64,000 nucleotides of DNA from a virus. The DNA is taken from IMG/VR virus record IMGVR_UViG_3300042398_000969, positions 96,001 through 160,000 of that record. The stretch is one strand, 5' to 3'. Positions 19,883-49,259 of the stretch are shown piece by piece. Each line of letters opens with the position of its first letter. The stretch's first letter is position 1. The translations under genes and the position numbers were made by a program. The notes beneath the pieces are model-generated. The model saw nothing but the letters and a program-made list of their open reading frames with translations. It was not told the DNA's origin and searched no databases.

Positions 19883-21067
19883 TTATGTTAAACCACCACT
19901 ACCACTACCACCGCCTCCGGCACAATTTCTTAATGCTGTTGATATTATATATCCATCGGTATCAATTTGTATTGCGTTAAATTGTCCATCATTTAGTGTG
20001 TTTATATTGTCTGTTGCTACAGCATACCATAAATTAAAACCATTAAATGGTTCATAATTTGTATTCGCATACACCCTAGTATATGAAATTGCAGCAGGTA
20101 GTGTTGCTCCAGTACTGAACCATCCTGCTGATGTCTGATAGCCAGGGCTAGAACAGAATGTATCTATAGATGATTGACCACCGCTCCTAAAATACCCATA
20201 AAGTGGTGGTGATGTTGGGGTTGGCGTTGGTGTAGCCGTTGGTGATGGAACCCCAAGACATTGAATACCAACCTCCCAGAAATCATTTACTTCATTAGGC
20301 GGAGCTAAGGCCGGAGCTGTTAATACATCAATATAATATGTTTTAGTATTATCATATGTGATTGATAATGTTATTGGCCCCATTGCTGTTGGATACCAAT
20401 AATCCTGTGAATTATATCCAGATGAATTACCAAACCATCCCGTACTTTCAAGAACTGTTAAAGATGTTCTAATTGAAATATTATTTGGTCTATCATTTGC
20501 AGTACATGTGAAATTAATTATTGAACCATTTGCTACTCCGGCAAAGTTTAATTGAATGTCATCATAGTTGTTCATTGTTGAGCCAGTGAACGTTCCCGAA
20601 ACTGTAGAACCACAACCAGGTAATGCTGTTGGTGTTGGTGTTGCTGTCGGTGTTATTGGTGTAGCAGTTGGTGTCACCGGTGTTGCTGTCGGTGTTACTG
20701 GTGTAGCAGTTGGTGGTACTGGTGTAGCAGTTGGTGGTACTGGTGTGGCAGTTGGACCAGGACCTGCTGTTGCTGTCGGTGCTGGAGTTGCTGTAGGTGC
20801 TGGTGTTGCTGTTGGACCAGGGAACCCAGTAACTTGTATATTTTGAGTGGTACCACTACAAGCCCCAACAGGTTCTACTTTAAGCCACGTTTTACCATCA
20901 GTTATTCCTGTTATTGTATAAGTTGGGTTAAATAATGACACTGCCACATTACCATAATTTGTTAAAGCAATGCAATTGGTATTGTTACCTTCACATTCAT
21001 AGAATTTAACAGATGTTATACCTAAACCTATTGTTGGACCTAATCTTACTGATGCTATATATGCCAT
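19883..21067 (-). CDS. Putative virion adhesin/decoration protein with Pro/Thr linkers
   Basis: Cys-containing beta-rich domains, (PTATPV)n repeats, C-terminal CAGGGGSGSGG. Confidence 0.65.
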   Translation of the reverse strand: MAYIASVRLGPTIGLGITSVKFYECEGNNTNCIALTNYGNVAVSLFNPTYTITGITDGKTWLKVEPVGACSGTTQNIQVTGFPGPTATPAPTATPAPTATAGPGPTATPVPPTATPVPPTATPVTPTATPVTPTATPITPTATPTPTALPGCGSTVSGTFTGSTMNNYDDIQLNFAGVANGSIINFTCTANDRPNNISIRTSLTVLESTGWFGNSSGYNSQDYWYPTAMGPITLSITYDNTKTYYIDVLTAPALAPPNEVNDFWEVGIQCLGVPSPTATPTPTPTSPPLYGYFRSGGQSSIDTFCSSPGYQTSAGWFSTGATLPAAISYTRVYANTNYEPFNGFNLWYAVATDNINTLNDGQFNAIQIDTDGYIISTALRNCAGGGGSGSGGLT

Positions 21068-21091
21068 ATGTTATAAATATTCTTATTTAAT

Positions 21092-21736
21092 TTAACGATT
21101 AGTGTTATTTAGAAAATAGTTCTTATCGTTTGACAAAAACTCATTAACGCTAAATGTTGTTATTGTTTCCGAGTTTGGGTTATTTTGAACTTTATTTATC
21201 ATTTTTTCGGTATGTCTACCGTTTATACCATAATTTCCTTGAACCAAGTAATCACCCAATAAAATAAAATTTGGATCATTTCTTAAATCCTTCTCTTCAA
21301 AATCATCATTAATTTGTTTTTTACTATAACCAATTTTTTTATGAATTATATTATCAGGTTTAAACTCGTTTTCAACCATTTCGTCATATATTAAATTTGA
21401 TGGCCTTTGTTCATACCACGTAACATCGACTAAAAGATTATATTCATTTAACCCCATATTCATTATAAAATTTAAATCATTTTCAATTTTTAAATCTGTA
21501 TGGTTTCCACCAACAATACACATATCCAAATCCCACGTGTTGTTAAAGTCAAATAAAACTCCACCCATTAAGTACATATCATATTCTTTTATAATCATTG
21601 ATTTAACATATAAATTAAATAAAAAATCATAAACTTTTTGATATGACGGTCTTGTCCAATGACTTGTTGTTGTTACAACCCCTCTTTGAAAAAAAATACT
21701 ATCTTTTAAATTTGCTACTTTATTAAATGTGCTCAT
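21092..21736 (-). CDS. Putative nucleotidyltransferase (Pol-beta fold)
   Basis: YLMGG-x8-WDLDMCIVG and a later LLVDVTW fit hG[G/S]..DxD..D. Confidence 0.5.
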   Translation of the reverse strand: MSTFNKVANLKDSIFFQRGVVTTTSHWTRPSYQKVYDFLFNLYVKSMIIKEYDMYLMGGVLFDFNNTWDLDMCIVGGNHTDLKIENDLNFIMNMGLNEYNLLVDVTWYEQRPSNLIYDEMVENEFKPDNIIHKKIGYSKKQINDDFEEKDLRNDPNFILLGDYLVQGNYGINGRHTEKMINKVQNNPNSETITTFSVNEFLSNDKNYFLNNTNR

Positions 21737-21747
21737 AATTTATATTT

Positions 21748-23280
21748 TTAACCACTATATCCTCCGGAACCTCCTCCAGAACCTCCTCCAGAACCTCCAC
21801 TGTCTGGAACTGGTGTTGCAGTTGGACTCGGTGTTGATCCATCGCAAGGTGAACATCCTGTATCTAATATAGTAAATACCGGTGTACTATAAACAACCGA
21901 TTTATAGTTATCTTTTGCAATTACCTTCCAACAGAATGTGTTTAAGAACGAATCGTTAACTCTAAACGTACCATTAATTCCAATTGTTGGTAATGTATCG
22001 GACCATACTGTTACACTATAGGATGCATTATCACATCTCACACCATCCATTTTATATTTTTTTGGCGTTGCATTACAACTTGAACAATCACCATATCCTT
22101 GGAACATTGGTTGACCTAAAACAAACGGTCCAGAATCTGTAATTTGATATCCATCAAAACCTTCACTTGGGTCTGTAATTACAAATTGTGGTCCTAGATT
22201 TTTATTAATGGTCATACATCTTGGATTCCCAGCAACAACGCCGTTTTCATATAATTGTATTCCATATGTTCTACCGGTGGTCATACCTAATAGCGAATAT
22301 GCTATAATATTTTCACCCGTATCACAAGTTACACCGCTATATCCAGTTATTGTGAAACCAGTAAATGGCGGGTCACAAGCAGCACAAGGATTTGCACCAG
22401 CTACTGGTGAAACACCATCTAAATTATATGTATAACCCGTAACATATTGTGTTTGGACTGCAATGATAGATAAACATGAATTACCAACTTGATATACCGT
22501 TCCTTCTGTTAACTGTGTTGAACTTCTTGCTATTGCCACGCCACCATAATTTTGACCAAAACCACAAGGATCTAGTGGATTTGAAAGTACGTATGATGTC
22601 GATGCTGGATTTTGCATTGATAATGTTCCAATATTTGCTAAAGTATCACAACCAGGTATTTGTATTGGTGCACTAAATCCAGTTGCAGTTATTGCTGTAT
22701 ATGAATATCTCATATCATTACAGTCGCCCATTGCGTAATAATAATATGATGGATCAATAACAACATTTGTTGTTGGTGTTGGTGTTGGTGTTGATGTTGG
22801 TATCACTGTCGTTGCTGTTGGTGTAGGAGTTGCTGTTGGGTTAGGTGTTGGCGTTGGGCCAATAACAACAGTCGCTGAACCACCAGAGAAATCGCAATTA
22901 GGTGTAGGGCTAGGTGTTGGACTAGGTGTTGGTGTTGGTGCAATATATACTGCGCTACCAACATTAGGAAAATAACAATAATTTATACAGTTATCATAAA
23001 CTTCAGCCTCATTCGTATATATATTTTCTATAACGTAATTAACATCACCGGTATCTCCAGTATATGTTAATTTAAACCAATATTGTGTATCAAAAGATGC
23101 GTCTGTAAAAATAATAGGATTTGTGTTATAGTCTCTACTTGAACTATTAGGATACAAAGAACCATAAGACGTGTATCCTGTTGCTATAACAGAGTCATCA
23201 CCAGCAGTTTTACCTGTTTTATATGATAAGGTAAAAGCTTTAGGTGAATTAATTCCATATAATCTTATGTTTAATCCCAT
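21748..23280 (-). CDS. Cys-rich, Pro/Thr-linker virion adhesin-like protein
   Basis: PT linkers, NCDFSGGSA motif, Cys-rich modules ending in CxxC, (GGSG)n C-terminus. Confidence 0.65.
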   Translation of the reverse strand: MGLNIRLYGINSPKAFTLSYKTGKTAGDDSVIATGYTSYGSLYPNSSSRDYNTNPIIFTDASFDTQYWFKLTYTGDTGDVNYVIENIYTNEAEVYDNCINYCYFPNVGSAVYIAPTPTPSPTPSPTPNCDFSGGSATVVIGPTPTPNPTATPTPTATTVIPTSTPTPTPTTNVVIDPSYYYYAMGDCNDMRYSYTAITATGFSAPIQIPGCDTLANIGTLSMQNPASTSYVLSNPLDPCGFGQNYGGVAIARSSTQLTEGTVYQVGNSCLSIIAVQTQYVTGYTYNLDGVSPVAGANPCAACDPPFTGFTITGYSGVTCDTGENIIAYSLLGMTTGRTYGIQLYENGVVAGNPRCMTINKNLGPQFVITDPSEGFDGYQITDSGPFVLGQPMFQGYGDCSSCNATPKKYKMDGVRCDNASYSVTVWSDTLPTIGINGTFRVNDSFLNTFCWKVIAKDNYKSVVYSTPVFTILDTGCSPCDGSTPSPTATPVPDSGGSGGGSGGGSGGYSG

Positions 23281-23315
23281 ATTACTATAAATACAATAAT
23301 TAAAAATTTAAATAA

Positions 23316-23341
23316 AAAACCCCTTTAAATAAAGGGGTTTT
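23316..23341. terminator. Bidirectional-type terminator hairpin
   Basis: AAAACCCCTTT-AAAT-AAAGGGGTTTT. Confidence 0.7.
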
Positions 23342-23373
23342 AATAATATTAAATTTAACCTTTTTTTAATTTA

Positions 23374-23949
23374 TTAGACTATCACACCGCCACCACAAGT
23401 GTTATCTACATTACATTGGTTCATTACTGACTGAGCAACACCATTTAAACCTATTTGGAACATATATCCAGAAGTGTGATAATACCAACCAGCACTTGCA
23501 TAATTTGAAGGTGATGCTATATTTTGTGTATACATAGTACCCTGTAATGATGTTAGATTATTTAAATTAGCTTCAGTTATATAGAATGTAGTATATGATT
23601 GTAAGTTATTGTAACCTGAACACGCATTAGTACAGTCTTGGTATGGACCTTGTGCTTGCATTCCCGTTAATGCTACACCAGACTCTGTTGCTGTTGGCGT
23701 AGGTGTTGGTGTCGGAGGAGCCACAGACCAAGACTGAGTTGTTGAGCATGTTCCAGTACTAGCTATTGTACCACCCGTTAATGTTTCAAGCGTTGTGTTT
23801 ATTGTATAACCTGTTGTTAATTGTGATTTGGTAACACCAGTGGCCAACCAGTGTGCTGCTCCAGCGCTAGTTGTACCTGAAATATTAAAAGGACCAGCAA
23901 CAAATGTTGCGCCTGTATAACTTGGACTTAGTGTGAATGTAATTTGCAT
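23374..23949 (-). CDS. Small two-domain virion decoration-like protein
   Basis: AGPFNI..ATGVTKSQL N-terminal domain shared with 23995..28122, PT linker, Cys-containing C-terminal domain, CGGG end. Confidence 0.65.
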   Translation of the reverse strand: MQITFTLSPSYTGATFVAGPFNISGTTSAGAAHWLATGVTKSQLTTGYTINTTLETLTGGTIASTGTCSTTQSWSVAPPTPTPTPTATESGVALTGMQAQGPYQDCTNACSGYNNLQSYTTFYITEANLNNLTSLQGTMYTQNIASPSNYASAGWYYHTSGYMFQIGLNGVAQSVMNQCNVDNTCGGGVIV

Positions 23950-23994
23950 TGTTCTTCTTTTTTAATATAAATATCTGTTTATTTTGTTTTTTTT

Positions 23995-26900
23995 TTATAC
24001 TTGTGCACCACCGCCGCCACCAAGACAATCATTACATGATGTCCATACACTTGAATATGATCCATCCGTTAAATGTGTCGCCTCTTGATCACATGTAGTA
24101 CCAACATAATAATCTACTTGTAAGCACACATTATTTACTTTAACAGCTTTAGTTCCACCTAAGAATGCACTAACCAATAAATCTGGTGATGTCATATATC
24201 CAACTAGATTATTTGAACAATTAATTACTTGATATTTGTAATATGATGCTGGTTCAGGTATCGCTGTTATACCACTGTTTACCACACAACCATTTGCGTC
24301 TGTAACCTCTAAACAATACCCATATGTTGTTAAATTATCTACATTGAATGTTGTACCAAAAGTTGATGTGCTATATGTTCCAACTAAAGTTCCACCACAT
24401 GTTGTATATGGTGAACTTGTGTCAGCATATAATCTATATGTTTTAGGGAATACACCACCACTTGATGTTAATTCTAAAACACCTGAGCTTGGTGAAGCAC
24501 ATGTTGGGTATGTAATAATTGTTAACGACGCAGATTGTGCCGTTGGTTGGCTAATTCCTTGACCATATGATGCCACACAATTATTACCATCTTTAACAGA
24601 TATTGTATACGTATCTGATATTAAATTATTAAATATCTTTGGAGGATAATAATAATTGTAACCATCAATTGAAACTTGTCTAGGTGATGTTCCGCCAACT
24701 AATGTTGTCACTTCAATAAAACCATTTGAACCACCATAACAAGAAACATTACCAACATCCACTATTCCAAGCGCTGGTGTAGATACTGTTAAGTTATATG
24801 ATACAATTGCAAAACAACTATTATTATCTAAAACTTGTATTGAATGATTACCACTTGGTAAGTTATTAAAAGTATGTGAAAATTTAAATGCTGTTAACGC
24901 TGAATATGAACCACCATTACTACTAATACAAAATTTATATCCTGAAGCATTTGGTGTTCCACCGCTACCCTGAATTGTTAATGATCCATTTGTTGAATTG
25001 TAACAAGTTGGAAAAGATGCACTAGTAATAGTGCCAGCCACCGCTGACGGTATAGTTACGGTTGCTGAATATGATTGTTCACAACCGGCACCATCTTTAA
25101 TAAAAATACTATATGTACCGCCACCTAATGATGAATAAGTTACTGGTAAGTTTGCATATGTTCCACCAGAGCCAAGTTTTGCTTGATAACCAGACCCAGA
25201 TCCTCCAGATCCACTAGAAACACCAATGGTGCCTGTTCCCGCATTACAATCTGGATTTGTAACAGATATTGTTGCATTCGGAGCTGATTTGGATAATAAC
25301 ACATAATCTATGGCCACACAACCATTACTGTCTTTAGCATATAAAGTATATAATCCTGTACCTAAACTACTAAAAGTTCCGCTGGCTTGATAATTTGAAC
25401 CATCTCTTGAATATGTAAAACCACCCACACCGCCTGAACCTGAAGCTGTTATTGAACCATTTGTACCATTCCAACATGTTGGATTTGTACCAGATACTGA
25501 TATAGATACCGCACTTGGTTGTGTTACTGTTTGATTATATGTTTGAACACAACCCGCGCCGTCTTTAATATATATTGTGTATGTTCCCGCAGATAATGGG
25601 TTGGAGTATGTAACTGGTAAATTTGCATAAGTTCCACCTACTCCGTTTTTAGCTTGGTATCCTGAACCACTTCCTCCAGTTCCATCACTAACCGTGATTG
25701 CACCTGTTCCACCACCATTACAAGCTACATTTGTAATTGAAAAAGTTGCATTAGGTGCTGATTTAGATAAAGTTGTTGCCGCTGAAGTTACACAGTCATT
25801 TGCATCCTTAATATAAATTGTTTTAGTCCCAACGGTTTGCCCAGTAAATGTTGCACTAGATTGATATGTTAAACCATCTGAAGAATATGTGTATGGTGAT
25901 GTACCACCTGTAGGAGATGCTGTAACGCTACCATCACTACCATTATAACATGTTGGATTTGTTGATGAAGATATTGAACCAAAAAGTTGTGTTGGCTCTG
26001 TTATTGTTACAGAATATGTTCTAGAACAAGCAGATTGATCAATAACAGTTACTGTGTATGTTCCAGCAGTTGGTACACCAAACGTTGCTGGTAAATTCTG
26101 ATATTGAAATGCACCATAATTTACTTTTGCTTGATATGTTCCACCGTTACCACCACTACCATTTGAAATTGTTATTGAACCGCCTCCATTTTGATAACAT
26201 GGTAAATTTGTTTGTGAAATAGTTGCACTTACTTGTGTTTTATTTAAACCGGTTGTATTTGTTCTAATACATCCACTAGCATCTTTAACATATGTGGTAT
26301 ATGTACCATTTGTTAAACCTGTAAATGTTAAACCAGATTGATAATTTGAACCATCTATTGAATATGTATATGGCGAAACACCACCACTTACACTAGATAA
26401 TGTTATTGAACCGTTTGAATTACCATTACAAGTTGGTTCTGTACCTGTAGCAGTGAAACTAATAATTGCAGGTTCTGTTATCGTTAATGATGTTAATTGA
26501 CCAACTTCATTATTTGAATCTTTAACATATAATGAATATGTTTGTGCTGTTAAACCTGTAAATACGTTACTTGATTGATAGGTAGTACCATTTATTGAAT
26601 ATGTATAACTACCTGAACCACCACTTGGACTAGTTATTGTTATTGTACCATTAGATCCTCCATTACATGTAACATTTGTTGAAGATCTAGATGCTGTTAT
26701 AACAACATTGGTTATATTGATAGTTATAACCACATCAAAATATAAACCTAAAGCATCAGTTGATCTAACTTTAATTAGATATGTACTTTTTGTTTCATAA
26801 TCAAATACTACTTTAGATTTTAAAACATTTCCAGCAATAGTAAAACTAGTATAATCTGGATATGATGAAGTATCTACAAATGAATATGTAAAAGTATCAC

Positions 26901-28122
26901 CCGCATCAGGATCTGCTGTTGAAAAAGTACCAATTGTTGTACCAGTTGCAACATTTTCAGATATTGAAGATGATGATAAATCAATTCCTGTTGGAGCCTC
27001 ATTAACACTAGTTACGGTAACTGAAACAAGACCATCATATGTTAATCCACCAGCATCTGTTGTTCTTATATTTAATAGATACGAACTTTTTGTTTCAACA
27101 TCGAAAACTTCTTTTGATGTTAATTGACCGCCAGAACTTAAATTAAAACTATTATTGTCTGGATATGAACCAGTATTAACAAATGAATATGTAAATGTAT
27201 CACCGGCATCTGGATCTAACGTTGATAGTGTACCAGCGTTTGTACCAATTCCACTATTCTCAGGTATTGTGCCAGATATGCTAATACCAAATGGTGCTTC
27301 ATTTACGTTATCAATATAAATTGTAAATTGTTTATCAAAGAATTGACCAACACTATCGGTAGTACGAATTGCCACTGTATATGAAGTTCCTGTTTCATAG
27401 TTAAATAATATTGAGTTAACTAAAGTATTACCACTAGTAGTGAAAGGTGCAGAATTTACTATAGAATATGTATGGGCATCATTACTATCACTTGACGCTG
27501 TTGCTAAATAACCAATCACCGTACCAATAGCTGAATTTTCGTTTATTCTATCATAACTTAATGAAAGATCTGTTGGTGCATAATTAACTGTTGTATCAAT
27601 TAAAAATAAACAATTAGGTGTTGAAGTTGGACTCGGTGTTGGCGTCGCTGTTGATGTCGGTGATGGTGTTGGTGTAGGTGTGGCGGTTGAACTCGGTGTT
27701 GGAGTTGGTGTTGCTGTTATAATATTTGTATCTATTCCAAAATCACAATTAGGTGTTGGAGTAGGACTAGGTGTAGGACTAGGACTTGGAGTTGGACTTG
27801 GAGTTGGACTTGGTGATGGACTTGGAGTTGGTGTTGGACTCGTTGTTGGAGTTGGTGTAGGTAATATAGTTTCATCAATATTTGATTGACATTCTGCAAT
27901 AACCCTAGCATTTGTATTGTATACAATTATTTTAGTTGCACTATCTGGTACACTAACGTGTAAACCTAAATTTGATATTAATTCAGTGCGTGTAACACCA
28001 CTAGCAAGAAATGATGTATCAAAATTGGTTGCAAGATTTGCAGCGTTAACTTGGTCATAATAAACATTATAAGGACCCGCGTCAGTACCAGAAACAATCT
28101 TTACATAAAACTTCTTTGCCAT
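23995..28122 (-). CDS. Large adhesin-like protein: PT linkers + 3 cadherin-like domains + about 10 SprB-like repeats
   Basis: Cadherin motifs ([25 protein letters not shown]) at about 26710-27580; SprB repeats (TC.G.SNGSIT..GG.SPYTYS.DG..YQ..TF.GL..G.YT.YVKDA.GC) at about 24260-26700. Confidence 0.85.
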
Positions 28123-28129
28123 CTATAAT

Positions 28130-28408
28130 TTATTTTCCGCAACCACAATCTGATTCATTATTTGTTGTGATTAACGATTTTGTTACACTATTAAAATAGT
28201 TTTTATTATTTTCAATGAAATCATTCGCTTTCTCCATTAATAACTCATTTACTTGATCATTGATATAGCTAATGTACATCTCATCATTTAAAGTAAATAG
28301 TTCTCTAACCATAACTTTAACACCATTAATTGTAAATAAATCATTTATATCAATGGTATAACCGTCATTTGTGTATGTTAAAATTTTATTTGTTATTATT
28401 ACTTCCAT
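28130..28408 (-). CDS. Hypothetical protein ending in DCGCGK
   Basis: 92-aa ORF tightly packed in the adhesin operon. Confidence 0.65.
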   Translation of the reverse strand: MEVIITNKILTYTNDGYTIDINDLFTINGVKVMVRELFTLNDEMYISYINDQVNELLMEKANDFIENNKNYFNSVTKSLITTNNESDCGCGK

Positions 28409-28409
28409 A

Positions 28410-30134
28410 TTAAACTACTTGACCTGTACAAGGATTTATTGTTAAGAAATTATTGTTTGGACAACCACTATAAATTGTTTCATTATTAAGTTTTAACGTA
28501 ACCCAGGTTACGTTAGTGTGACATTGTCCATTTCCAAAACCAAGATTTACATTTATTGGTGTTGCACAAACTAATGCAAAACTTATATTACCACCAGTTG
28601 ATGATGCTGCAATATCTTGTGCTTGTTGCGTTGTTAGTGTTAATGAGTTATATCTAGCATTACCACTAGTAACCCCAGGAGGATAATTAAATTGATCATT
28701 TGACCCACCAGTGTTACTTAAATAAACTGTACCTATATTAATATTATTACCTCTTAAATAAAAAGTTGCAGCATTACATGTGTGTCCACCAGGACAAGGT
28801 CCTAATGTTGGGCTATATTGAACAATAAATTCCATATTAGCCAAACAGTTTACTACTTCAGTTAATTCAGGTGTAATTGTTGTATCTAAAGCGCAATCAA
28901 TAGTTGCTGTAGGTGTTGGACTTGGAGTTGGTGTTGGACTCGTTGTTGGAGTCGGTGACGGTGATGGGCTAGGACTAGGCGTTGGCGTTGGTGTAGCCGT
29001 TATAATATTAGTATCAACACCAAAATCACAATTCTCGGTAGGAGATGGTGTTGGTGTTGGTGTCGCTGTTGCTGTTGGGCTCGGCGTTGGGCTAGGAGTT
29101 GGTGTTGGGCTTGTTGTTGGAGTTGGCGTTGCTGTTATTATATTAGTATCAATACCAAAGTCACAATTAGGTGTTGGGCTAGGTGTTGGAGTTGGTGTAC
29201 TAGTTGGTGTTGAGCTTGGTGTTGGTGTTGGACTAGGACTTGGGCTAGGTGTTGGGGTTGGTGTGGCAGTAATAATATTTGTATCAATACCGAAATCGCA
29301 ATTAGGTGTTGGACTCGGTGTTGGAGTTGGTGTACTAGTTGGTGTTGAGCTTGGTGTTGGACTCGGTGTTGGTGTAGGTGTAGCTGTAATAATATTTACA
29401 CCAACGTTAATATCACAATTAGGGGTTGGACTTGGGCTCGGAGTTGGACTAGGACTAGGTGTTGGGCTCGTTGTTGGTGTTGGTGTTGCTGTAATAACAT
29501 TAACTCCCATTCCAAAGTCACAATTAGGTGTAGGGCTTGGAGTTGGTGTAGGACTAGTTGTTGGTGTTGGCGTTGCTGTTATAATAATAACACCAACGTT
29601 AATATCACAATTAGGGGTTGGGCTTGGAGTCGGTGTTGGTGTAGCTGTAATAATATTTACACCCACACCAAATGTACAATCATTGGTCGGTGTAGGAGTT
29701 GGTGTTGGTGTGGCAGTAATAACATTTGATGTTACTTGAAAAGTACAATCAGATGTTGGCGTTGGTGTTGGGGTTGGCGTTGCTGTAACAACATTAGTAT
29801 TAACACCAAAATTACAATTTGCTGTTGGACTTGGTGTTGGTGTAGGTGTGGCAGTTGGACTTGTTGTTGGTGTTGGGGTTGGTGTTGCGGTTGGTAATGG
29901 ACAGCTACCCAAATTAAGATTTATTGATGTAACACTACTTGTCCCATTAATTGTCCATCCAGTATTTGGTGAATCACTTGTTGTTGTATTTCTAGGTTCT
30001 CCACCATATGGCCATGGATTTATTGTCCAATAGTCACTACCATTCCATCTAACATTACATGTAATGCCACTAAGACTACCTTGCCAAGAAGGTTTTCCGT
30101 TATAGTGCCCGTTATATGTAAAGGTTGTTAACAT
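28410..30134 (-). CDS. Pro/Thr-rich repeat protein (putative scaffoldin-like virion appendage)
   Basis: Trp-rich N-terminal domain, 9 full + 1 degenerate (N/D)C(D/T/N)(F/I)x(V/I/M)xxN(I/V)ITA motifs on PT linkers, Cys-rich C-terminal domain. Confidence 0.75.
28880..29819 (-). repeat. Intragenic repeat array of 13-aa Cys strand motif + PT linker
   Basis: Visible as GGTGTT-type repeats on the plus strand and in the translation. Confidence 0.9.
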
Positions 30135-30155
30135 TTTTTTATTTTATTTTTAAGT

Positions 30156-33100
30156 TTAAGGACACGCACCAAGATAACATGCAACACTTAGAGTTATTGT
30201 ATCACCACTATTAATTACCACTCCAGTTATTTGTGGGAATGGATTAGATGTGAAATATGATGTATATGATGGACTTGTTGATCCATTTTTATATATGAAA
30301 ATCACACCACAATTTCCGTTACCTGGTAAATTGGTTGTAACATTACATTGGATTGTATTTGTTGATCCATAATTAATACCACCAGGATTTGTTTTACCAC
30401 CAGCTAGTGTTGATGTTAATGGGAATGTAGATGGCCCATTTAATGTGTTCATAAATGTACCATTAATACCAACATCATTTAACGTCCCATTACCACAATC
30501 ATTGTTTCTAACCGTCCAAATTGATGTTGGTGGATTAGTTGCTGTTGGTGTTGGTGTTGGTGTTGAAAACGAAATATCAACACAGAAATCATCAGCTGCT
30601 GTTGGTGTAGGTGTTGCTGTTGGCGTTTGAGTAGGTGTTGCTGTTGGTGGCACCGGAGTCGCTGTTGGACTTGGGGTTGGTGTTGGAGTCCTAGTAGGTG
30701 TTGGTGTAGGAGTTCTAGTTGGTGTAGGTGTAGGTGTTTGTGTAGGAGTTGGTGGCGGTGTTACTATTGGATATGACCCCACACAAGTATATGCCGCAGC
30801 ACCGGTACAAACATTTGAATAATTTCTTAGTAAAGATCCTATTGATGGTACTGTTGTACAAGCAATATTATCAGTGTAATATTGTTGCATTGATGAACCA
30901 ATAACCTCAAAACCAACATATTCATGTTCTACTAAAGCTAAATAATTAGAATTACCATTAAAGGTTATTAAATTTGTTGGTTTAGTTCCTGCTACATTTA
31001 TGTTATAATACATATTAATGTTACAGTAATTTAAATCAACGGCGGTTACTTCAATTAGTTCTCCTTTCTCTGTTATAATATAATCACCAGTGTCATAATA
31101 ATCAGATGGATAATCACAACATGGCTCTATTGGTGTTTCTGGTTTTATTTGTAAAAATTCTGGTGATCTTGTATCAAAAACATAACCACTTCTTTTTGTG
31201 ACCTTGCCCGTATTTTCGTTAACATCTTTATTTGTATAGATTCTAAATTTAGTTGTTGGTAAAACATCAAAAACAACTGTTGTACCACTATTTGTAACAC
31301 CACTAATTACACTAGTTTTAACGGAACCTAGTGAATCCATATCATGTATTGTGTATGTTGTATATGTGTATGAAAAAGAATAATTGTTTGTTGATTCAGC
31401 AAAATCAAACGCACTACTTGATAGTGATGAGCATGAAAGATAATTTGCGGATACAACTACATTTCCATTAGAAAGATCTTTAACAGATCTCTTTACTAAA
31501 GTACCTGCAGTAATATAATTTTGTATATCAGCCGATGTTGTTGAACTATTAATTGTTGCGCCGCTTACTACTAAAACTTTGGTATCATGTTTTAAACCAT
31601 AATTGTATGAATTTCTATATTGAACCCTTGGATGTATAGTAAAACCAGTATTAACAACAATTGGTTGATCCGGTACTTCTGTTGGAAATTCAACATATTG
31701 TAAATTCAAACCATCAATTCTCACTTTTTTATCACAGTTAGCCGCATCAGTAAATAATAAATCTATAACCTCATCTTCATACACGTTTGATATTTTAAAT
31801 TGACATGTATTCCCGCTAACTTGTGCAAAGGTTGTATCGGTGTATACTGGGTTATATCCAGAAAATGCATTTATAACCGGTATTGAGTTTCTTTGTACAT
31901 AAATTCCCCAACCATATGTTTCACCAGATTGGACAGTAGCACCAGTAATATTAACAATAATATCAGATTTTAATTTACATGCGGTAGATCCAGTATAAAC
32001 TGGGTGTAAAACACCATCTGGACAAACTGTTGTGAATTCTAAATCTAAACTACATTTTGGTAATGAATAGTTATAATCAGCATCAAAATAAAAATCTAAA
32101 TATCTTTTTTCTGAACAGTCTGAATTGCTATGTGCAATAAATTTAACCTTTTCAATACCATCATTATCAGTAAAAAATTCATAAGATATTAATTGTGTAT
32201 AACCAGAACAGTTAACGCCACAACCGTATGTTACACCACTATATGGTGATACACTTGGTAAGTGACCAGCAACCGGATCGTTATATGTTGAATTAATTTT
32301 ATTAACTAAGTTAATAACAGCTGTTCTCCAAAGCGTTTTTGTTGTTGAAGTATTTAATTTAATCCAATTTTTATAATCACAAATTAAAGGTATGCTTGTC
32401 GATGAACTACTTAAAACACTGCAACTATTTGTTGCGGTATAACCAGTATCAAATAATGTACTCCCAGTTATTTTAACTTGTGATGTTGTTCCACTATATT
32501 CAACACCGTCAACATCCATCTTTAATGTGAATGTTACACCAGTAAGATACATTAAACCCCTAAGATGATCTGGTTCACCAACAATGGTTTCCACATCTTC
32601 TTCAATAAAGGTTTCAAAGTCTGGATAAAGATTTTCAACTATCTCAATTGGTTTACATGGTTTTCTGTATGCATATTTAGGTCTTGCAAATATATTATTT
32701 TCAATTAAGTTACCACCCATCCATAATGTTGTTGATGGAATAACTTGTTCTAACACATTTGACCAATATGGGCTCATTTGATTTACGAAATCAGTTGAGT
32801 CAATCATATCATATGGTGTATATCCTGAAGATATTAATTGATTAATATAATCTTGATAAACATCTTCTAGATGAATATAATTTTTTTTGTATTTTACTAC
32901 ATTTGAATTTATAACTTGTTTAGAAAACGTCATCTCAAGGTACTCAGCAAAACTGGTTTGATCTTGAACCTCTAAACTATTTTTTCCGAAAACAACTTCT
33001 AGCTCTCTAGATTTTCTCCAAATATCATAGTTACTTGCATTAGCTGGGCTAACAAAGACGCTAATATTTTTTCTATTTAATATTAAACCGGTACCAGTTA

Positions 33101-35009
33101 GATCATCAACAACTTGACTTTTGACATTATCAATTTTACTTTCTAATGTATAGCCATAATCTAATCCTGGGAATGTTCTGTATATGTCAAAAAACTCTTC
33201 ACCATATGAATATGGTTTTGATTTTGTTAATATTGTTTTTGTTCTACCTGTTAAAATAAACTCACCATCAACAAATGTACCACTAGAATTATCTGTATCA
33301 ATCATATCTGAAGATCTATGATCTAAAGTAACATCGTGCCAACCAGATCCCATTTGGAAAAATATATTATCCTGATTTGTTGTTGGTGTTTTAGGTAAAT
33401 AAGTGTCAGTATCAATTGGGTAGTCAGTAGTATTACTGAACGTTGTTAATCCTGTTACAGCAGATAAACTATATGTGTAAGTTGATGGATTAAATGTTAC
33501 TTTATTATTGAATGAAACATTATTAATGACCTTAAATAAATCATCCTCAACTGATGTTTTTGGAATGGCGGTTTTTACACTATAAACATATTCGTTTATT
33601 TTAACCATTGGATCTGGAGCACCAATAAATTTTAAGTAAAATTCAATACAGCTTCTAGTTCCTTTTGATTTATATATAAATGCTAGGTTAACTAATAATC
33701 TTCTATAAAATTCCAACTCAGCATCAACTAAATTTTTACCAATGGATGAACCATTATAAACCGATTTAGATGCTTTATATAATTCTTCTTCTAATGATTT
33801 TTGATCAAATAATTTAATGGTATTTAAACCTAAAGTATTTGCTAAGTTTTTAAGAAAAACATCAGGTATATTATTAATAGCATCATAAGAAACATTTCTC
33901 ATGTGTGCTATGTTATCAATATATGATTTTACCTTATCAAAACTTTGACCATATAGTTGAAATATTTTATCAATTTTTTGATCTTCAGTATCAAACTCAA
34001 ATAATTGTGGTGCAACTAAAAACCTTGTAACTAAGTTTGATTTATAATTGTCAATTTCTGTTGCTAAATCATTTAATTTAGTTAAATAGTCATCAAAATT
34101 TAAACCTGTTGTTTGTGGATTCCAACCATCTTTAGAAACAGGCCATTCAGCTGTTACATAAATTAAATCTGTTCTTGTTTCATCTAAGCTTGTTCTTGGA
34201 ACCTTAAATGATGATTGAAATATTGGATATGTATCTCTGTTTAATAGGGTTTGTTCCAATTCATCTAAACCTAGATAAAATTCTTCAACAACAGAGTCGT
34301 TTGGTCTAATAATATAACTTGTAGAATATGTTACCCCAGTAAACGGTTTGCCATAAACTTCTAATGAAATTGTACTATCTGTGTTTGGTTGAGTATATTT
34401 TGAAATATTGTACGTTTTGTTATCAATAACGATTGAATATTTGCTATATGATGAATATAAATTTCTAATTTTATTTTCAACTGGTAATAAATTATTTCCA
34501 GTCAATTCAGATAAAACTATATCAAATGGATTAAAGAACTTACTTGCTTTGGTTGTAAATGTTGTTTTATCACTTGTAGCACTGTAAACAATATTCTCGG
34601 CTGTATAATTTGTTGTTGAGGATAAACCTTCAGAATCAACATAAATGGCAGCAGGGTAGTTTTTAACAATTCTACCAATAGAAACTCTAATACGTTCTCT
34701 AAGAGATCCAAATAAAGATTTAGAACCCTCTGTTTTATCAGAGTTAAATCTTATTGGTCTTTTTTCACCAGTAGATTGCTTAACTGTTGTTGGAACATCA
34801 TTTTCTATTTTAAGATCTTCTAATGTTAGAAAATCAGAAAATGGTGCTGTTTTGAAGCTTTTTGCGTCTTGCTCAGGTATAACTCTATCAAGAGCAAAAT
34901 TGGTATTAGTTAATTGACTAGTACCGTCAGTAATTTGTCTTCCAACAATACTGTCGCTAAAAGTTTCATATCCACTAGCAGCCTGACTTGGTACTTTTCT
35001 TGTTGCCAT
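30156..35009 (-). CDS. Large baseplate wedge protein (P2 gpI/T4 gp7-like core) with C-terminal PT-linked module
   Basis: IPDVFLKNLANTLG..FYRRLLVNLAFIYKSKGTRSCIEFYL resembles the Tail_P2_I core; PT linker near the C-terminus. Confidence 0.65.
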   Translation of the reverse strand: MATRKVPSQAASGYETFSDSIVGRQITDGTSQLTNTNFALDRVIPEQDAKSFKTAPFSDFLTLEDLKIENDVPTTVKQSTGEKRPIRFNSDKTEGSKSLFGSLRERIRVSIGRIVKNYPAAIYVDSEGLSSTTNYTAENIVYSATSDKTTFTTKASKFFNPFDIVLSELTGNNLLPVENKIRNLYSSYSKYSIVIDNKTYNISKYTQPNTDSTISLEVYGKPFTGVTYSTSYIIRPNDSVVEEFYLGLDELEQTLLNRDTYPIFQSSFKVPRTSLDETRTDLIYVTAEWPVSKDGWNPQTTGLNFDDYLTKLNDLATEIDNYKSNLVTRFLVAPQLFEFDTEDQKIDKIFQLYGQSFDKVKSYIDNIAHMRNVSYDAINNIPDVFLKNLANTLGLNTIKLFDQKSLEEELYKASKSVYNGSSIGKNLVDAELEFYRRLLVNLAFIYKSKGTRSCIEFYLKFIGAPDPMVKINEYVYSVKTAIPKTSVEDDLFKVINNVSFNNKVTFNPSTYTYSLSAVTGLTTFSNTTDYPIDTDTYLPKTPTTNQDNIFFQMGSGWHDVTLDHRSSDMIDTDNSSGTFVDGEFILTGRTKTILTKSKPYSYGEEFFDIYRTFPGLDYGYTLESKIDNVKSQVVDDLTGTGLILNRKNISVFVSPANASNYDIWRKSRELEVVFGKNSLEVQDQTSFAEYLEMTFSKQVINSNVVKYKKNYIHLEDVYQDYINQLISSGYTPYDMIDSTDFVNQMSPYWSNVLEQVIPSTTLWMGGNLIENNIFARPKYAYRKPCKPIEIVENLYPDFETFIEEDVETIVGEPDHLRGLMYLTGVTFTLKMDVDGVEYSGTTSQVKITGSTLFDTGYTATNSCSVLSSSSTSIPLICDYKNWIKLNTSTTKTLWRTAVINLVNKINSTYNDPVAGHLPSVSPYSGVTYGCGVNCSGYTQLISYEFFTDNDGIEKVKFIAHSNSDCSEKRYLDFYFDADYNYSLPKCSLDLEFTTVCPDGVLHPVYTGSTACKLKSDIIVNITGATVQSGETYGWGIYVQRNSIPVINAFSGYNPVYTDTTFAQVSGNTCQFKISNVYEDEVIDLLFTDAANCDKKVRIDGLNLQYVEFPTEVPDQPIVVNTGFTIHPRVQYRNSYNYGLKHDTKVLVVSGATINSSTTSADIQNYITAGTLVKRSVKDLSNGNVVVSANYLSCSSLSSSAFDFAESTNNYSFSYTYTTYTIHDMDSLGSVKTSVISGVTNSGTTVVFDVLPTTKFRIYTNKDVNENTGKVTKRSGYVFDTRSPEFLQIKPETPIEPCCDYPSDYYDTGDYIITEKGELIEVTAVDLNYCNINMYYNINVAGTKPTNLITFNGNSNYLALVEHEYVGFEVIGSSMQQYYTDNIACTTVPSIGSLLRNYSNVCTGAAAYTCVGSYPIVTPPPTPTQTPTPTPTRTPTPTPTRTPTPTPSPTATPVPPTATPTQTPTATPTPTAADDFCVDISFSTPTPTPTATNPPTSIWTVRNNDCGNGTLNDVGINGTFMNTLNGPSTFPLTSTLAGGKTNPGGINYGSTNTIQCNVTTNLPGNGNCGVIFIYKNGSTSPSYTSYFTSNPFPQITGVVINSGDTITLSVACYLGACP

Positions 35010-35923
35010 TATTCGGTAATATCGTCAAAGTTTAATGTTTGGTCTATATCAGTTTTTTCCTCACGAATCTCATATAATGTTTCGTTAAGATCATCTTTAA
35101 CCTCATAAAGATTGAACTGTTTATAAATCGCGTTATTGTTGTTCTTGTCATAAATTGTGTAAATACCAGAATTTAACGCCTTACTTTGATTACCATAAAG
35201 TGCATGTGCAAGTGTTGATGCATCATGTTCAACCATTTCAACCTCAACTGTAGTTGGGTTAAAGTAACTATTGGTTAAAATAATGTTTTGAGATGGTTGG
35301 CCAATAAATGGTACTACATTGGGTCTATTGCTAGGTGCAGAAGACGGTGTAACTGTTAAGAATACCAAATTGGTTGGTGCATCTGAATATCTATATCGAA
35401 TTGCTTTTTGTGTTGTATTTGTTAAGTTTGTTGTTACTGGTTCACAATAAAAAGAAGATGTTACTATTCTGTAAAAATTAGGTACTTTTTTATTGTTTAA
35501 GGAATCAATATATTCAACCCTATAACCCACCAAACCTTGTGGAACAAATTTATTTGTATCTTCTGTTGAAACATTTCCCAAATCAATAACTAATCCTCTA
35601 ACTGAAGGTAATGAAGCTAAAACACCACAATCTGTGATTTCAGTTCTAACCTGTTTTGGTCTAAGATGTAATGTGTAGATACCTAAATCACTAAAAACAT
35701 CACTATTTAGTCTAAGATTGTATAATCCACCTAAAATTTCAGTACCTGAAGTACCGCCAGTTTCTGAGTTATGAAAAACAGGTGTCAAAATATCAGCAGA
35801 ATCCAACTTTGTTAGTGTTGGTTCTGTTGTTGACGCTCTATTAGCCACATAGTGAAGTAGAATTTCTACATCTTCTGGGGACACATCTGCTGGTCTTATT
35901 GTTCCGTAACTTCCTACTGCCAT
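35009..35923 (-). CDS. Putative baseplate structural protein
   Basis: 304-aa beta-rich ORF in the structural operon; TATTTATA upstream. Confidence 0.6.
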   Translation of the reverse strand: MAVGSYGTIRPADVSPEDVEILLHYVANRASTTEPTLTKLDSADILTPVFHNSETGGTSGTEILGGLYNLRLNSDVFSDLGIYTLHLRPKQVRTEITDCGVLASLPSVRGLVIDLGNVSTEDTNKFVPQGLVGYRVEYIDSLNNKKVPNFYRIVTSSFYCEPVTTNLTNTTQKAIRYRYSDAPTNLVFLTVTPSSAPSNRPNVVPFIGQPSQNIILTNSYFNPTTVEVEMVEHDASTLAHALYGNQSKALNSGIYTIYDKNNNNAIYKQFNLYEVKDDLNETLYEIREEKTDIDQTLNFDDITE

Positions 35924-35947
35924 GTTCTTTTAATTATAAATATAATT

Positions 35948-36889
35948 TTATTGTTTTTTCACCAAGAAAAATCCATTTCCGTAGATATCTAATTCACCTA
36001 TATTATCAATTTCACCTAATCTTAGGTTAAATTCTGCTACACCCAATTTTCCTCTTTCAACAAAAATATCAGAATACACCAACGGTTCAGAAACAAAACC
36101 AAGATAATGTTCATTTCTGGTTAATTTTTTAGTGAATTGACTTTCAGATGCAAAAGTTGCTGTGTTGCCAGTAATATAGGTAGTTCCATCTGATAAATCA
36201 AGGTAAGTTAGTCCATCAATTTCGTATTTATCACAATTGTATGATGTTCCCTCAATTGTGATTGTTGTTCCAGTAACACCACTATATGTGCTACCACCAT
36301 ATAATTTTTTTTCAATTTTTCTACTTTTACCTAAAGCTAAAAATGTTGTTGTTCCAGTAAAAGAATTTCCAGAATAATCATAATTGTTATTATAATTCTG
36401 AGTTCTACCAGATTGTAGATAGGTTTCACCACTAACATTAAAATATGGTAATGTTGTACCTGTATATGTGAAAGTCGCTAAATTAGTGGGATTGTTGGTG
36501 GTTAACGGTAATTTAATTTGTTTTGTCACCGTTTCTGTTTTCCATGATGCTACCATGGTGATAGAAACATTTTTAAAACCTGGTGTTGAATATGTTTTTG
36601 TTTTTCCACTCAATATACTAATAGCTTCTGCTGGTGATCCATCACCCCAATTAATTGTGAATGTGGCGTCAATAATTCTTTTTAATTTTATATTACTAGC
36701 TGAGTTATATACTGTAAGGGTGTTTCCAGTATTGGCGGAATAAACAAAATTGCATAATTGTTCTGCTTGTTCAATATCACCATCAAAACCAACCATAACA
36801 CCCAACTCATCAGCTTTTGCTTCTAAAAATAATGGTAGGTTATATGTTAAACCGGTTTTTCTTAATATTTCGTATTTTAACTTTTTCAT
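35948..36889 (-). CDS. Structural protein with PKD-like domain
   Basis: TINWGDGS..KTYSTPGFKNVSIT. Confidence 0.6.
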   Translation of the reverse strand: MKKLKYEILRKTGLTYNLPLFLEAKADELGVMVGFDGDIEQAEQLCNFVYSANTGNTLTVYNSASNIKLKRIIDATFTINWGDGSPAEAISILSGKTKTYSTPGFKNVSITMVASWKTETVTKQIKLPLTTNNPTNLATFTYTGTTLPYFNVSGETYLQSGRTQNYNNNYDYSGNSFTGTTTFLALGKSRKIEKKLYGGSTYSGVTGTTITIEGTSYNCDKYEIDGLTYLDLSDGTTYITGNTATFASESQFTKKLTRNEHYLGFVSEPLVYSDIFVERGKLGVAEFNLRLGEIDNIGELDIYGNGFFLVKKQ

Positions 36890-36890
36890 T

Positions 36891-37718
36891 TTATAGTTTT
36901 ATTGCACTTCCTCCTCCGAAATCACAATTACCTCCAAGCCCTCTTATTATTGTATATGTATGTTCAGGTCTTTTAAATAAAACCCTGTAGTAAACATTTT
37001 CCTCTGGATTTGTATTAACGTTGGGATTCATTTCATAAAACATAACTGGATTTGACGTTGTACCAACTCTTGTTCCATCAACTAATCCAGAATTATTTAC
37101 TGTTAAATCTCTATTTAAAAATCTAAGAATTGATCCATCTTCAGCATTGAAAAATCTAGCTGTCATATAAAATGTGGTACCCGTATAAACTGTATTATCT
37201 GGAAACCAGAACAAATACATATTTTCCGTATTTCTATAATTGTTTCCGTTGAATACTGGAATAAAAATATCATCCCTCAAATTCATATCAAAAACTTTCT
37301 GACCTAACGGAATTGATAAATTTTTTGCAAAAACTAATTTTTGTGTTTCTCTATATGGTGTTGTATAAAATTCTAACCTAAAAAAACTATTAACAGTATG
37401 TTTTAATAGTTTAACGTTTTCTTTTGGACTAATCCCTATTAAATTATAATCCAAGCCATTTGAATACGTGTTACCACTATTAAGAAAGTTAAAATAAAAC
37501 CAGATATCACATTGTAGTGTTTGAACACTAGATATTGTAACATTATATGGCTCATGAATATATCTTGTTGTCTCGTAGTTTTCAATAGGGTTTATAATAC
37601 TTTTTAAAATATTATCTTGCTGTTCTAAAAAATTCTCCTCCCAACCAGCATTTGTTCTAAATTCTGTTTCTGGATTGAATACCAAAGATTGATCAATATT
37701 TTTATATAATATTTTCAT
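36891..37718 (-). CDS. Putative structural protein
   Basis: 275 aa; C-terminal GGNCDFGGGSAIKL. Confidence 0.6.
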   Translation of the reverse strand: MKILYKNIDQSLVFNPETEFRTNAGWEENFLEQQDNILKSIINPIENYETTRYIHEPYNVTISSVQTLQCDIWFYFNFLNSGNTYSNGLDYNLIGISPKENVKLLKHTVNSFFRLEFYTTPYRETQKLVFAKNLSIPLGQKVFDMNLRDDIFIPVFNGNNYRNTENMYLFWFPDNTVYTGTTFYMTARFFNAEDGSILRFLNRDLTVNNSGLVDGTRVGTTSNPVMFYEMNPNVNTNPEENVYYRVLFKRPEHTYTIIRGLGGNCDFGGGSAIKL

Positions 37719-45185: not shown

Positions 45186-45186
45186 A

Positions 45187-45657
45187 TTAGATATTAATAA
45201 TTACGAAGTCTGAACTAGAAAAAGCTCCGTTATTTGTTGTGTAATCGATTCTTATTTTAGCTGTATATGGTTTTGAGGCTGAATCGCTAACTCTAAACAG
45301 TCTAATATCCTCATCTTCACTAATACTAGACCCTTCTGATGGATCTAATTCTGGGTTTGTTATTTTTATTGAGTTTATCTCTAAATTAGGAATATATGTT
45401 CTAATACTTTCTCTAATCTCATCTTCAATACTATTATATGTAACAACATCATTCATATCAAAAATGTACTCATACAATCTAGTACCAAAATCAGGTAAAA
45501 AATACCTGCTACCCTTTCTTGTCAATAACAAATGAATCAAGTTAGCACGAATCTCTTCGTCTCTTGTTAGGGTCATTCTGGTGTAGTCACCTATTGTACT
45601 GTCTCTAAACGGAAAGTCTAATCCATACTTTGTAGCCATACCAATAAATATAAACAA
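45187..45657 (-). CDS. Baseplate wedge protein gp25/GPW-like
   Basis: GLDFPF, IRANLIHLLLTRKGSRYFLPDFGTRLYEYIF. Likely start ATG about 45639 (MATKY). Confidence 0.9.
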   Translation of the reverse strand: MFIFIGMATKYGLDFPFRDSTIGDYTRMTLTRDEEIRANLIHLLLTRKGSRYFLPDFGTRLYEYIFDMNDVVTYNSIEDEIRESIRTYIPNLEINSIKITNPELDPSEGSSISEDEDIRLFRVSDSASKPYTAKIRIDYTTNNGAFSSSDFVIINI

Positions 45658-48261: not shown

Positions 48262-48269
48262 TTGTTTTT

Positions 48270-49247
48270 TTAGAAATCAACATCACCGAATGCAGAATTT
48301 AAATCTTCTGACTCTGTTGTTTTATTTACACCCGCTTTTTGATATTCAGCAACTCTTTTCTCAAAGAAATTTGTTTTACCTTGTAATGCAATATTTTGCA
48401 TAAAATCAAATGGGTTTTCTGCATTATAAACTTTAGAGCAACCTAATGCAACTAATAATCTATCTGTTACAAATTCCAAATATTGTGCCATTAAATCTGA
48501 ATTCATACCAATCAAACGAACTGGTAATGCTTCAAGAATAAATTCCTTTTCGATTTCTAGTGCACCACAGATAATTTCTTTAACTCTTTTTTCAGAAATT
48601 TTATTTTCAATATGGTTATTGAATAAGTGACAAGCATAATCGCAGTGCATACCTTCATCACGAGAAATTAATTCATTCGAGAAAGTTAAACCTGGCATTA
48701 ATCCTCTTTTCTTTAACCAGAAAATAGAACAGAATGAACCAGAAAAGAAAATACCTTCAACAGCAGCAAATGCAACTAATCTATCAACAAAAGATTCAGA
48801 ATTAATCCATTTAATTGCCCAATCAGCTTTCTTCTTGATTGCTGGGATGGTTTCAATAGCATTAAATAATTTATGTTGTTCTTCTTTATCTTTAATGTAT
48901 GTGTCAATTAATAACGAATATGTTTCGCTATGGATGTTTTCCATCATAATCTGGAAACCATAGAAAAATTTAGCTTCAGTATATTGAACCTCATTAACAA
49001 AGTTCATTGCTAAGTTTTCATTGACAATACCATCCGACGCAGCAAAAAATGCTAGAACGTGTTTAACAAAATGTTGTTCATCTGCATTTAACTTATTATC
49101 CCAATCATAAACATCTTGTCCAAGATCAATCTCTTCAGCAGTCCAAAAACACGCTTCTTGTTGTTTAAATAATCTCCATAAATCATGATGCTGAATTGGA
49201 AAAAGCACAAAGCGACCTGGATTGTCAATTAAAATTTTTTCTGTCAT
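48270..49247 (-). CDS. nrdB: Ribonucleoside-diphosphate reductase beta subunit
   Basis: [56 protein letters not shown]. Confidence 0.97.
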
Positions 49248-49259
49248 TTTTTTTATTTT

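Follow-up and report, generated by a model that had tools for sequence, protein, structure and literature searches.

A repeated Cys-x-Phe strand on Pro/Thr spacers in the modular adhesin genes of an uncultured freshwater jumbo phage group

The adhesin genes and their repeated peptide

The stretch of DNA analyzed here (the window) comprises 64,000 nucleotides, bases 96001–160000 of a 169,422-base IMG/VR phage record that CheckV rates as about 50% complete and that comes from an uncultured freshwater jumbo phage group. Next to its baseplate genes lies a block of genes, all on the minus strand, whose products combine an N-terminal domain (N-domain), linkers rich in Pro and Thr (PT linkers) and a distal domain, with one short peptide recurring between the linkers. 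This peptide, which we call the unit, is an amphipathic β-strand of 10–13 amino acids (aa) led by Cys-x-Phe; a second subtype, C-x-F-x-G-G-[ST]-A, is referred to as the GGSA-type unit. The genes and elements concerned, named below by the first coordinate of each gene in window numbering, are the following.

28410..30134, minus strand: array protein, 574 aa, with an N-domain of type B (aa 1–73) and a Cys-rich distal domain (aa about 420–574)
28902–29894 (aa 81–411), minus strand: array of 28410, nine canonical units and one degenerate Cys-strand unit, with PT linkers
23995..28122, minus strand: adhesin, 1375 aa, with an N-domain of type A (aa 1–77), a stalk, then cadherin and SprB repeats
27574–27891 (aa 78–183), minus strand: stalk of 23995, one 10-residue unit-like strand and two units
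23374..23949, minus strand: 191-aa protein with an N-domain related to type A, one PT linker and a small distal domain
21748..23280, minus strand: 510-aa protein with an X-type N-domain ending in the unit-like strand CYFPNVGSAVYIA, PT linkers flanking a unit, and a Cys-rich distal domain
22861–22899, minus strand: GGSA-type unit NCDFSGGSATVVIG of 21748, between two PT linkers
19883..21067, minus strand: 394-aa protein with a type-E N-domain ending in the Cys strand CSGTTQNIQVTGF, long PT linkers and distal domains
36891..37718, minus strand: baseplate-operon protein, 275 aa, with a single C-terminal GGSA-type unit (the 'stub'), NCDFGGGSAIKL, at 36894–36929
30156..35009, minus strand: large fibre or baseplate protein, 1617 aa, with a C-terminal PT region (aa 1416–1496, 30522–30764)

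A six-frame scan of the whole 169 kb record for the five-residue core [ND]C[DNTL][FI][GSNQL] returned 13 matches in four real minus-strand genes, all co-oriented and beside the baseplate genes, and only 5 matches scattered over the rest of the record, in unrelated or spurious frames. The copies listed in an earlier annotation of this DNA from its letters alone (the original prediction) were all recovered: ten in 28410, nine of them canonical and one degenerate (IDCALDTT), two in the cadherin/SprB adhesin 23995, NCDFSGGSA in 21748, and the free C-terminus of 36891, where the stub is the true end of the protein. As that annotation had also stated, every copy lies between Pro/Thr runs except the one in 36891. 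Two plus-strand open reading frames (ORFs) with GVGVG-type repeats, at 20568–20846 (92 aa) and 29263–29739 (158 aa), are mirror-frame artefacts of the PT-coding repeats and not genes.

The unit peptide is under strong purifying selection

Three copies of the 13-aa peptide, two in 28410 and one in 23995, are identical, and at the DNA level they have 31–34 of 39 bases in common, the 5–8 differences all being synonymous; the two NCDF-x-GGSA copies use serine codons from different codon families. Among 15 relatives, silent differences at codons for the same residue amount to 0.4–0.8 in most, within as well as between genes. Considering that the peptides are identical and only silent differences separate them, the copies must be old, and the motif peptide is under strong purifying selection. 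The synonymous differences rule out recent gene conversion as the source of the identical copies, and older conversion combined with purifying selection cannot be told apart from co-evolution, as the closest relative is already saturated at silent sites.

The DNA of the 28410 array is a tandem repeat with periods of 69 and 135 bases, and arrays look split or rejoined between genes in the related locus L023, as might be expected if the strands were functionless relics of PT-repeat slippage and recombination. Against such a neutral origin, the peptides are still identical at near-saturated synonymous sites, Cys and Phe are invariant in 244 distinct units, and the stub is kept in homologues of its protein down to about 45% identity; we regard this explanation as barely credible.

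Organization of the stalks in relatives

To describe the repeat beyond the window, we collected islands, defined as short non-PT stretches of 8–16 aa between PT runs, from fetched loci and proteins (relatives are cited by our G, L and P handles). Exactly one Cys, near the island start, is present in 279 of 302 islands, and the unit profile is C100-[DNE]-F97-[DGEN]-[VI]93-[DEN]-[VLI]-x-[VI]-[VI]94, where the numbers are percentages. Arrays contain 1–14 units, and copy number varies among close relatives (4, 6, 8 and 10 were seen), the homologues of 28410 having 4–10 units. The arrays occur mainly at two sites, the C-terminal third of the 1617-aa-protein homologues and the 500–700-aa proteins that follow. 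In the window, the PT region of the 1617-aa protein contains degenerate units only (TCVGSYPI, FCVDISFS); its homologues have arrays of 5–14 units there.

Unit-bearing proteins begin with at least six types of N-domain, with no evident sequence similarity between types, and end in very diverse distal domains, among them cadherin plus SprB, von Willebrand A (VWA)-like and Cys-rich lectin-like domains. Each N-domain ends in a Cys-led unit-like strand just before the PT linker, and the conserved Cys in the N-domain motif of the original prediction is the first residue of this domain-terminal strand. The adhesins thus share one layout: an anchor (an N-domain of one of these types or a core of the 36891 type), followed by repeats of a unit and a PT spacer (10 aa or more) and, last, a distal domain. 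The VWA resemblance was noted by eye in P0026, L012:18716–20830 and L019:19785–20648, whose distal domains carry DSSGSM, a motif like the metal ion-dependent adhesion site (MIDAS).

The adhesin 23995 has the best characterized distal region. Its cadherin repeat was detected by Pfam (PF00028, E 6.1e-17) and modelled by AlphaFold2 (AF2) with a predicted local distance difference test (pLDDT) of 82–95 over residues 181–275; the modelled domain, residues 179–273, superimposes on cadherin-23 EC1 (7n4p_A) with Z 12.8 and a root mean square deviation of 1.6 Å over 92 residues. The SprB repeat (PF13573) scores E 3.3e-40 and 135.8 bits, with a cut-off of 28, and the SprB region matches a PHROG annotated as virion structural protein (1.8e-39). 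The second unit of this protein resembles its own inter-cadherin junctions and the modelled fold starts at residue 178–179, right after it, in line with the earlier suggestion that the motif occupies the position of a cadherin terminal strand. On that match and the position of the genes, the fibre proteins are candidate virion components that would bind the host.

The proposed kinship of the N-domains of 23374, 23995 and 19883 holds for the first two (BLASTP E 7e-5, 25% identity) and is marginal for 19883, where the similarity (E 0.06) covers only the last strand and the linker. In the PT census, 23374 has no canonical unit, only the domain-terminal Cys strand, and its homologue is syntenic in G001; a homologue of 19883, P0006, has two canonical units.

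A four-unit profile search of 1.84 billion representative proteins gave 35 matches; all unit-bearing ones have the N-domains of this lineage, and the remainder reflect plain PT composition. On this search, the stalk repeat is restricted to this phage lineage. A literature search returned no description of such a Cys-strand/PT repeat among the matches listed, and the repeat, which is real, appears to be undescribed.

Structure predictions

AF2 predicts that N-domains A and B fold as β domains with pLDDT 75–92 without an added unit and leaves the units as coil, at about 30–48. In a model of whole 28410, N-domain B reaches 77–86 and the array, predicted as coil, about 30, the alignment being shallow and the result accordingly weak evidence on the array fold; in a model of 23995 residues 1–290, the N-domain and the cadherin domain fold and the units are left unstructured. 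No unit docks onto an N-domain in cis, though the linkers are long enough. That the flanks fold and the units do not is as expected if a unit needs a partner strand. A complex prediction with three copies of 28410 residues 100–200, covering four units, had a score of 0.01 and says nothing either way. Fold searches returned only weak small-barrel matches for N-domain B (best Z 5.4), and for N-domain A, compared with the PDB and viral libraries, the result was masked by the cadherin domain.

The predicted disorder of the arrays would also suit stalks with no ordered association at all, that is, mucin-like flexible tethers whose islands have some other use, for example as sites recognized by a virion-tailoring enzyme from another part of the genome or as patches that stick to the host surface; the single unit variant found in each genome (see below) would moreover be accounted for by an enzyme or partner common to all the genes. 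Enzyme recognition fits poorly with the absence of a fixed acceptor beside the Cys, as Asp at +3 and +5 is present in only about half of the units and several window copies have Gly there, and the alternating hydrophobics are the pattern of a buried strand face. We consider such tethers distinctly unlikely. A radical-SAM-type Cys thioether cross-link inside the unit was considered as well, and the units have no conserved acceptor position for it.

Spacing of the units

Among 269 distinct unit-to-unit spacings, 106 are exactly 23 aa, corresponding to a 13-aa unit and 10 PT residues, and only 2 are shorter, which makes 23 aa a hard minimum period. From the anchor towards the head the spacing increases in 20 of 20 non-constant arrays (sign test 2e-6; Kendall tau >0 in all), which belong to two protein families in distant genomes and are not all phylogenetically independent. 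Monotonic or near-monotonic linker growth is found, for instance, in the window array at 28902–29894, where the spacings are 23, 23, 23, 29, 35, 39, 45 and 45 aa, and in L008, L017, L026, L042, L049, L075, L080 and L090. The proximal, short-spaced units of the window array are the most diverged from one another, so that a simple account in which young copies are short does not fit. We also considered a matching of register between 23995 and 28410, which both have a 45-aa spacing in the window, and rejected it, since the agreement is lost in G001, the closest long relative (49 versus 43).

In L023 the 28410 homologue (L023:17824–18843) has only four units (spacings 23, 33, 33) and another head, and the next gene, at about L023:20090, has spacings of 43, 43 and 43; taken together, the two genes correspond to the one array of G001, a pattern suggestive of recombination within an array.

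The hard minimum is what one might expect of an intramolecular ladder, in which successive units within a chain form a stacked, parallel, in-register β-sheet and the PT linkers form polyproline-II crossovers, giving a compact solenoid-like β/polyproline-II domain. By our own estimate, the shortest linker, 10 PT residues behind a 13-aa unit, has about the length that spans a 10-residue strand in polyproline-II conformation; the invariant Cys and Phe and the conserved aliphatic and Asn positions would make ladders of the β-solenoid type, and the first and last units of an array are position-specific, like caps. On the other hand, the AF2 models show no sheet in the arrays, weak evidence given the shallow alignment, single units, terminal stubs and spacings of 45–117 aa cannot fold in this way, and counter-ions would be required for the stacked Asp/Glu faces. 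Nor would one expect linker length to be under selection along the array if extra length merely loops out. Overall, we hold the ladder to be quite improbable.

Exchange of distal domains and proteins ending in a unit

The N-domains A, B and X recur with differing C-terminal domains in relatives, as in modular receptor-binding proteins; the X-type N-domain of 21748, for example, has other heads in G001, G002 and others. In ten relatives a 36891-type core is joined via PT linkers to various heads, and an 843-aa protein in L081 combines an N-terminal 36891-type core with an extension homologous over 358 residues to the 21748 distal domain (E 6e-31). As judged from these gene structures, adhesin heads have been swapped by recombination or gene fusion at the repeats that code for PT linkers.

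GGSA-type units sit directly after globular domains, following the core of 36891 homologues, the X-type N-domain of 21748 homologues and the globular part of the large protein, and they can also repeat directly, every 14 aa, without a linker between them. The stub, conserved over the identity range given above, is missing in other 36891 homologues. Others again have a PT linker and a distal domain on the core, and in L049 and L050 the linker and domain follow the GGSA-type unit. Several 'headless' proteins end in a unit, namely 36891, a PT-tethered stub in L047 and X-domain proteins of 125–146 aa, indicating that the unit has a role of its own. The small X-domain proteins, with one or two units, were seen in L107 and L112 (137–138 aa), L119 and L121–L123 (125 aa) and L109 (146 aa); they recur in several independent contigs, the last unit being C-terminal and followed by no distal domain.

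Baseplate context and neighbouring genes

The gene order runs from gp25-like and gp6/Baseplate_J-like genes through large unassigned proteins and 36891 to the 1617-aa protein and then the PT-rich genes. Two further features belong to this neighbourhood.

43356..45657, minus strand: baseplate context heading the co-oriented block, with gp6/Baseplate_J-like 43356–45185 and gp25-like 45187–45657
28130..28408, minus strand, and L090:1775–2050: 92-aa ORF ending in CGCGK, between the array protein and the cadherin/SprB adhesin, conserved at the same place in G001

The gp6/J-like gene matches Pfam PF04865 (E 8.4e-5) and a PHROG baseplate wedge family (6.7e-18), and the gp25-like gene matches PF04965 (E 2.2e-12), so that a contractile-tail baseplate module, with both wedge genes in the same co-oriented block, is present. 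Genes for the large and small subunits of ribonucleotide reductase and a DnaB-like helicase (45817–50651, minus strand) lie directly upstream in the same orientation. The 92-aa ORF matches no known family; it may encode a factor for fibre assembly. A 214-aa ORF at 21092–21736 (minus strand), between 21748 and 19883, has neither PT linkers nor family matches; it has no counterpart in the syntenic region of G001 and looks like an insertion.

Relatives of 36891 are encoded by 243 metagenomic viral loci on contigs of up to 333 kb, and a PDB sequence search with the protein gave no match. Comparison of DNA or protein with 50,697 phage records gave no isolate relatives.

Possible docking between proteins and the variants shared within a genome

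The original prediction had proposed that the strands could be docking sites recruiting interchangeable adhesin or lectin subunits in a cellulosome-like system; in that reading the N-domains would be the sockets. A modular, baseplate-adjacent adhesin set is indeed present, with gp25/gp6 genes nearby, conserved N-domains, PT-linked stalks and interchangeable distal domains. Distal domains do interchange, as envisaged for the display of adhesins, the route being genetic fusion at PT linkers and not docking. The sockets themselves found no support: every N-domain protein has its own units, in cis, between N-domain and head; the six or more dissimilar N-domain types precede the same units; the Cys of the supposed socket motif is part of the stalk, where it belongs to the first unit; and in the AF2 models the N-domains fold by themselves and the units are left as coil. 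The domains of a cellulosome were not found: a Pfam scan of the ten proteins of 19883–37718 (E ≤0.01) gave Cadherin and SprB only, with no cohesin or dockerin, and none was found in the Pfam scan of the large neighbours of this region either. The co-occurrence of motifs among relatives speaks against the stub as the required docking site, as arrays are present in genomes whose baseplate protein is without a stub. Arrays were found downstream in 10 of 10 distinct stub loci, 4 of 11 no-stub loci and 6 of 7 loci with a fused core; arrays thus do not need the stub, and the stub is ruled out as an obligatory docking site for them.

Docking could take another form, in which the units of the baseplate stub, the headless adaptors and the fibre arrays pair with one another by β-strand and then lock by oxidation. 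This we consider unlikely, and we give no better prospects to its predicted outcome, a branched, re-combinable adhesin tree with a 10–13-aa peptide code that co-evolves across the genes of each genome. What speaks for pairing between proteins is that units of different genes in one genome share a variant, with a mean of 7.1 of 10 residues identical compared with 4.2 of 10 between genomes. The variant shifts in concert in genes of the 28410 and 23995 types, from NIITA in the window to I[IL]VLTA in G001, and matching copies differ at several bases, mostly synonymously; the single free unit of the 23995 homologue in G001 matches the 28410-type variant of its own genome (13 of 14 residues, 35 of 42 bases) and not that of the window. 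Furthermore, some proteins end in a unit without a distal domain, and an X-domain protein with GGSA-like units was present in each of the 7 stub genomes examined. In G009, Phe is replaced by Leu and one residue is deleted in the stub and in the X-protein units alike, the one clear case of co-variation in what is otherwise generic similarity. The L081 fusion of a 36891 core to a 21748 distal domain can be taken as a Rosetta-stone hint, an argument weakened by the wide shuffling of distal domains. Other observations oppose pairing of this kind: arrays are present in the no-stub and fused loci counted above, X-domain proteins are not confined to stub genomes, the units of stubs and arrays belong to different subtypes and do not generally co-vary, the shared 45-aa spacing is lost in G001, and the AF2 models, in which N-domains fold alone, show no unit docked in cis. 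The variant shared within each genome could be explained by old gene conversion and selection, by a shared partner or by unit-to-unit pairing.

A proposed stalk of self-associating strands

The reading we favour, which has about an even chance of being correct, is that the repeat forms a stalk module in which the units act as nodes of β-strand self-association between the chains of one fibre. An isolated strand with one fully hydrophobic face should be unable to stand alone, and the units would accordingly pair with equivalents on other chains, acting as periodic zipper or registration nodes or, at a C-terminus, in a foldon-like manner. After lysis, the Cys might become oxidised or take up metal. 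Reach would be set by the PT segments, acting as semi-rigid spacers, and dense nodes near the baseplate with sparse nodes near the tip might give a stiff base and flexible reach; changes in copy number would make the stalk longer or shorter, with some 100 nm as the limit at full extension. We rejected intrachain disulfides between neighbouring units because arrays with an odd number of copies (5, 7, 9, 11) are no rarer than those with an even number.

Several points weigh against this model. Cadherin/SprB adhesins are usually monomeric filaments, so that a homo-oligomeric stalk for 23995 is an assumption. Specific homo-oligomerisation would be expected to give differing variants among co-expressed fibres, and one shared variant per genome is observed, an outcome that hetero-association or a common partner would explain no less well. 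In a trimer, units with a single Cys each cannot all be paired by disulfides, and the hard 23-aa minimum is not predicted by nodes on a stalk. In addition, no isolate among the 50,697 phage records compared carries these stalk genes.

Relation to known systems

Receptor-binding appendages determine the host range of a phage, and only a few designs are known for them: coiled coils, β-helices, Ig-like (immunoglobulin-like) strings and collagen-like repeats. The Cys-x-Phe strand/PT stalk is a different and very regular solution, so far seen only in a widespread uncultured freshwater jumbo phage group; it would give a simple handle for recognizing adhesin genes in such phages, and it offers a clear example of distal-domain swapping at linker-coding repeats. 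If units do pair between chains or proteins, they would represent a natural, compact peptide zipper that protein engineering might exploit. The finding overturns no established view at present.

With cellulosome scaffoldins and their cohesin–dockerin pairs, the stalks share PT-rich linkers between repeated modules and variable displayed domains. The repeated element is a strand of 10–13 aa here, compared with domains of 140 aa or 70 aa there, the units lie inside the adhesins themselves, whose interchange proceeds via gene fusion, and the Pfam scan found neither cohesin nor dockerin. Donor-strand complementation in chaperone-usher pili likewise employs a short amphipathic strand with alternating hydrophobics that is unstable alone; unlike in those pili, the N-domains here are predicted to fold without an added strand, a chain has up to 14 strands and nothing so far points to an incomplete Ig fold. 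No signal peptides are evident in the N-termini of these phage proteins.

Mucin PTS (Pro/Thr/Ser) regions are interrupted by CysD domains of ~110 aa with many disulfides, which are thought to cross-link chains. The stalks resemble them in that long Pro/Thr-rich stretches are punctuated by Cys-containing hydrophobic elements; the unit is far smaller than a ~110-aa CysD, organisms and biogenesis differ, and glycosylation of the phage stalks would be an assumption. The anchor–stalk–tip logic of bacterial fibrillar adhesins is also found here, and 23995 itself has true cadherin and SprB repeats. Those adhesins are strings of folded Ig-like domains, whereas the proximal stalk here is made of single strands on PT spacers and presumably attached to the virion.

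Viral fibres contain registration elements such as the foldon of T4 fibritin, the adenovirus triple β-spiral and the metal-binding repeats of T4 gp37 and gp12. Like these, the units are short β motifs, sometimes C-terminal, of the sort that hold chains in register there, and the GGSA-type repeats have a 14-aa period. There is no sequence similarity to viral fibre shafts, the known repeats are contiguous whereas those here are separated by PT spacers of 10–100 aa, and trimers are only proposed here. Modular phage receptor-binding proteins reportedly combine conserved N-terminal anchors with exchangeable distal domains, in branched sets such as CBA120 TSP1–4 and G7C gp63.1/gp66. The phage adhesins described here have no sequence or fold match to those anchors, their connector is a Cys-strand/PT repeat, and attachment through the N-domain is what we infer for them; they share with the modular receptor-binding proteins a location of adhesins beside baseplate genes, conserved N-domains with swapped C-terminal domains, and the occurrence of both fused and split forms of anchor and head.

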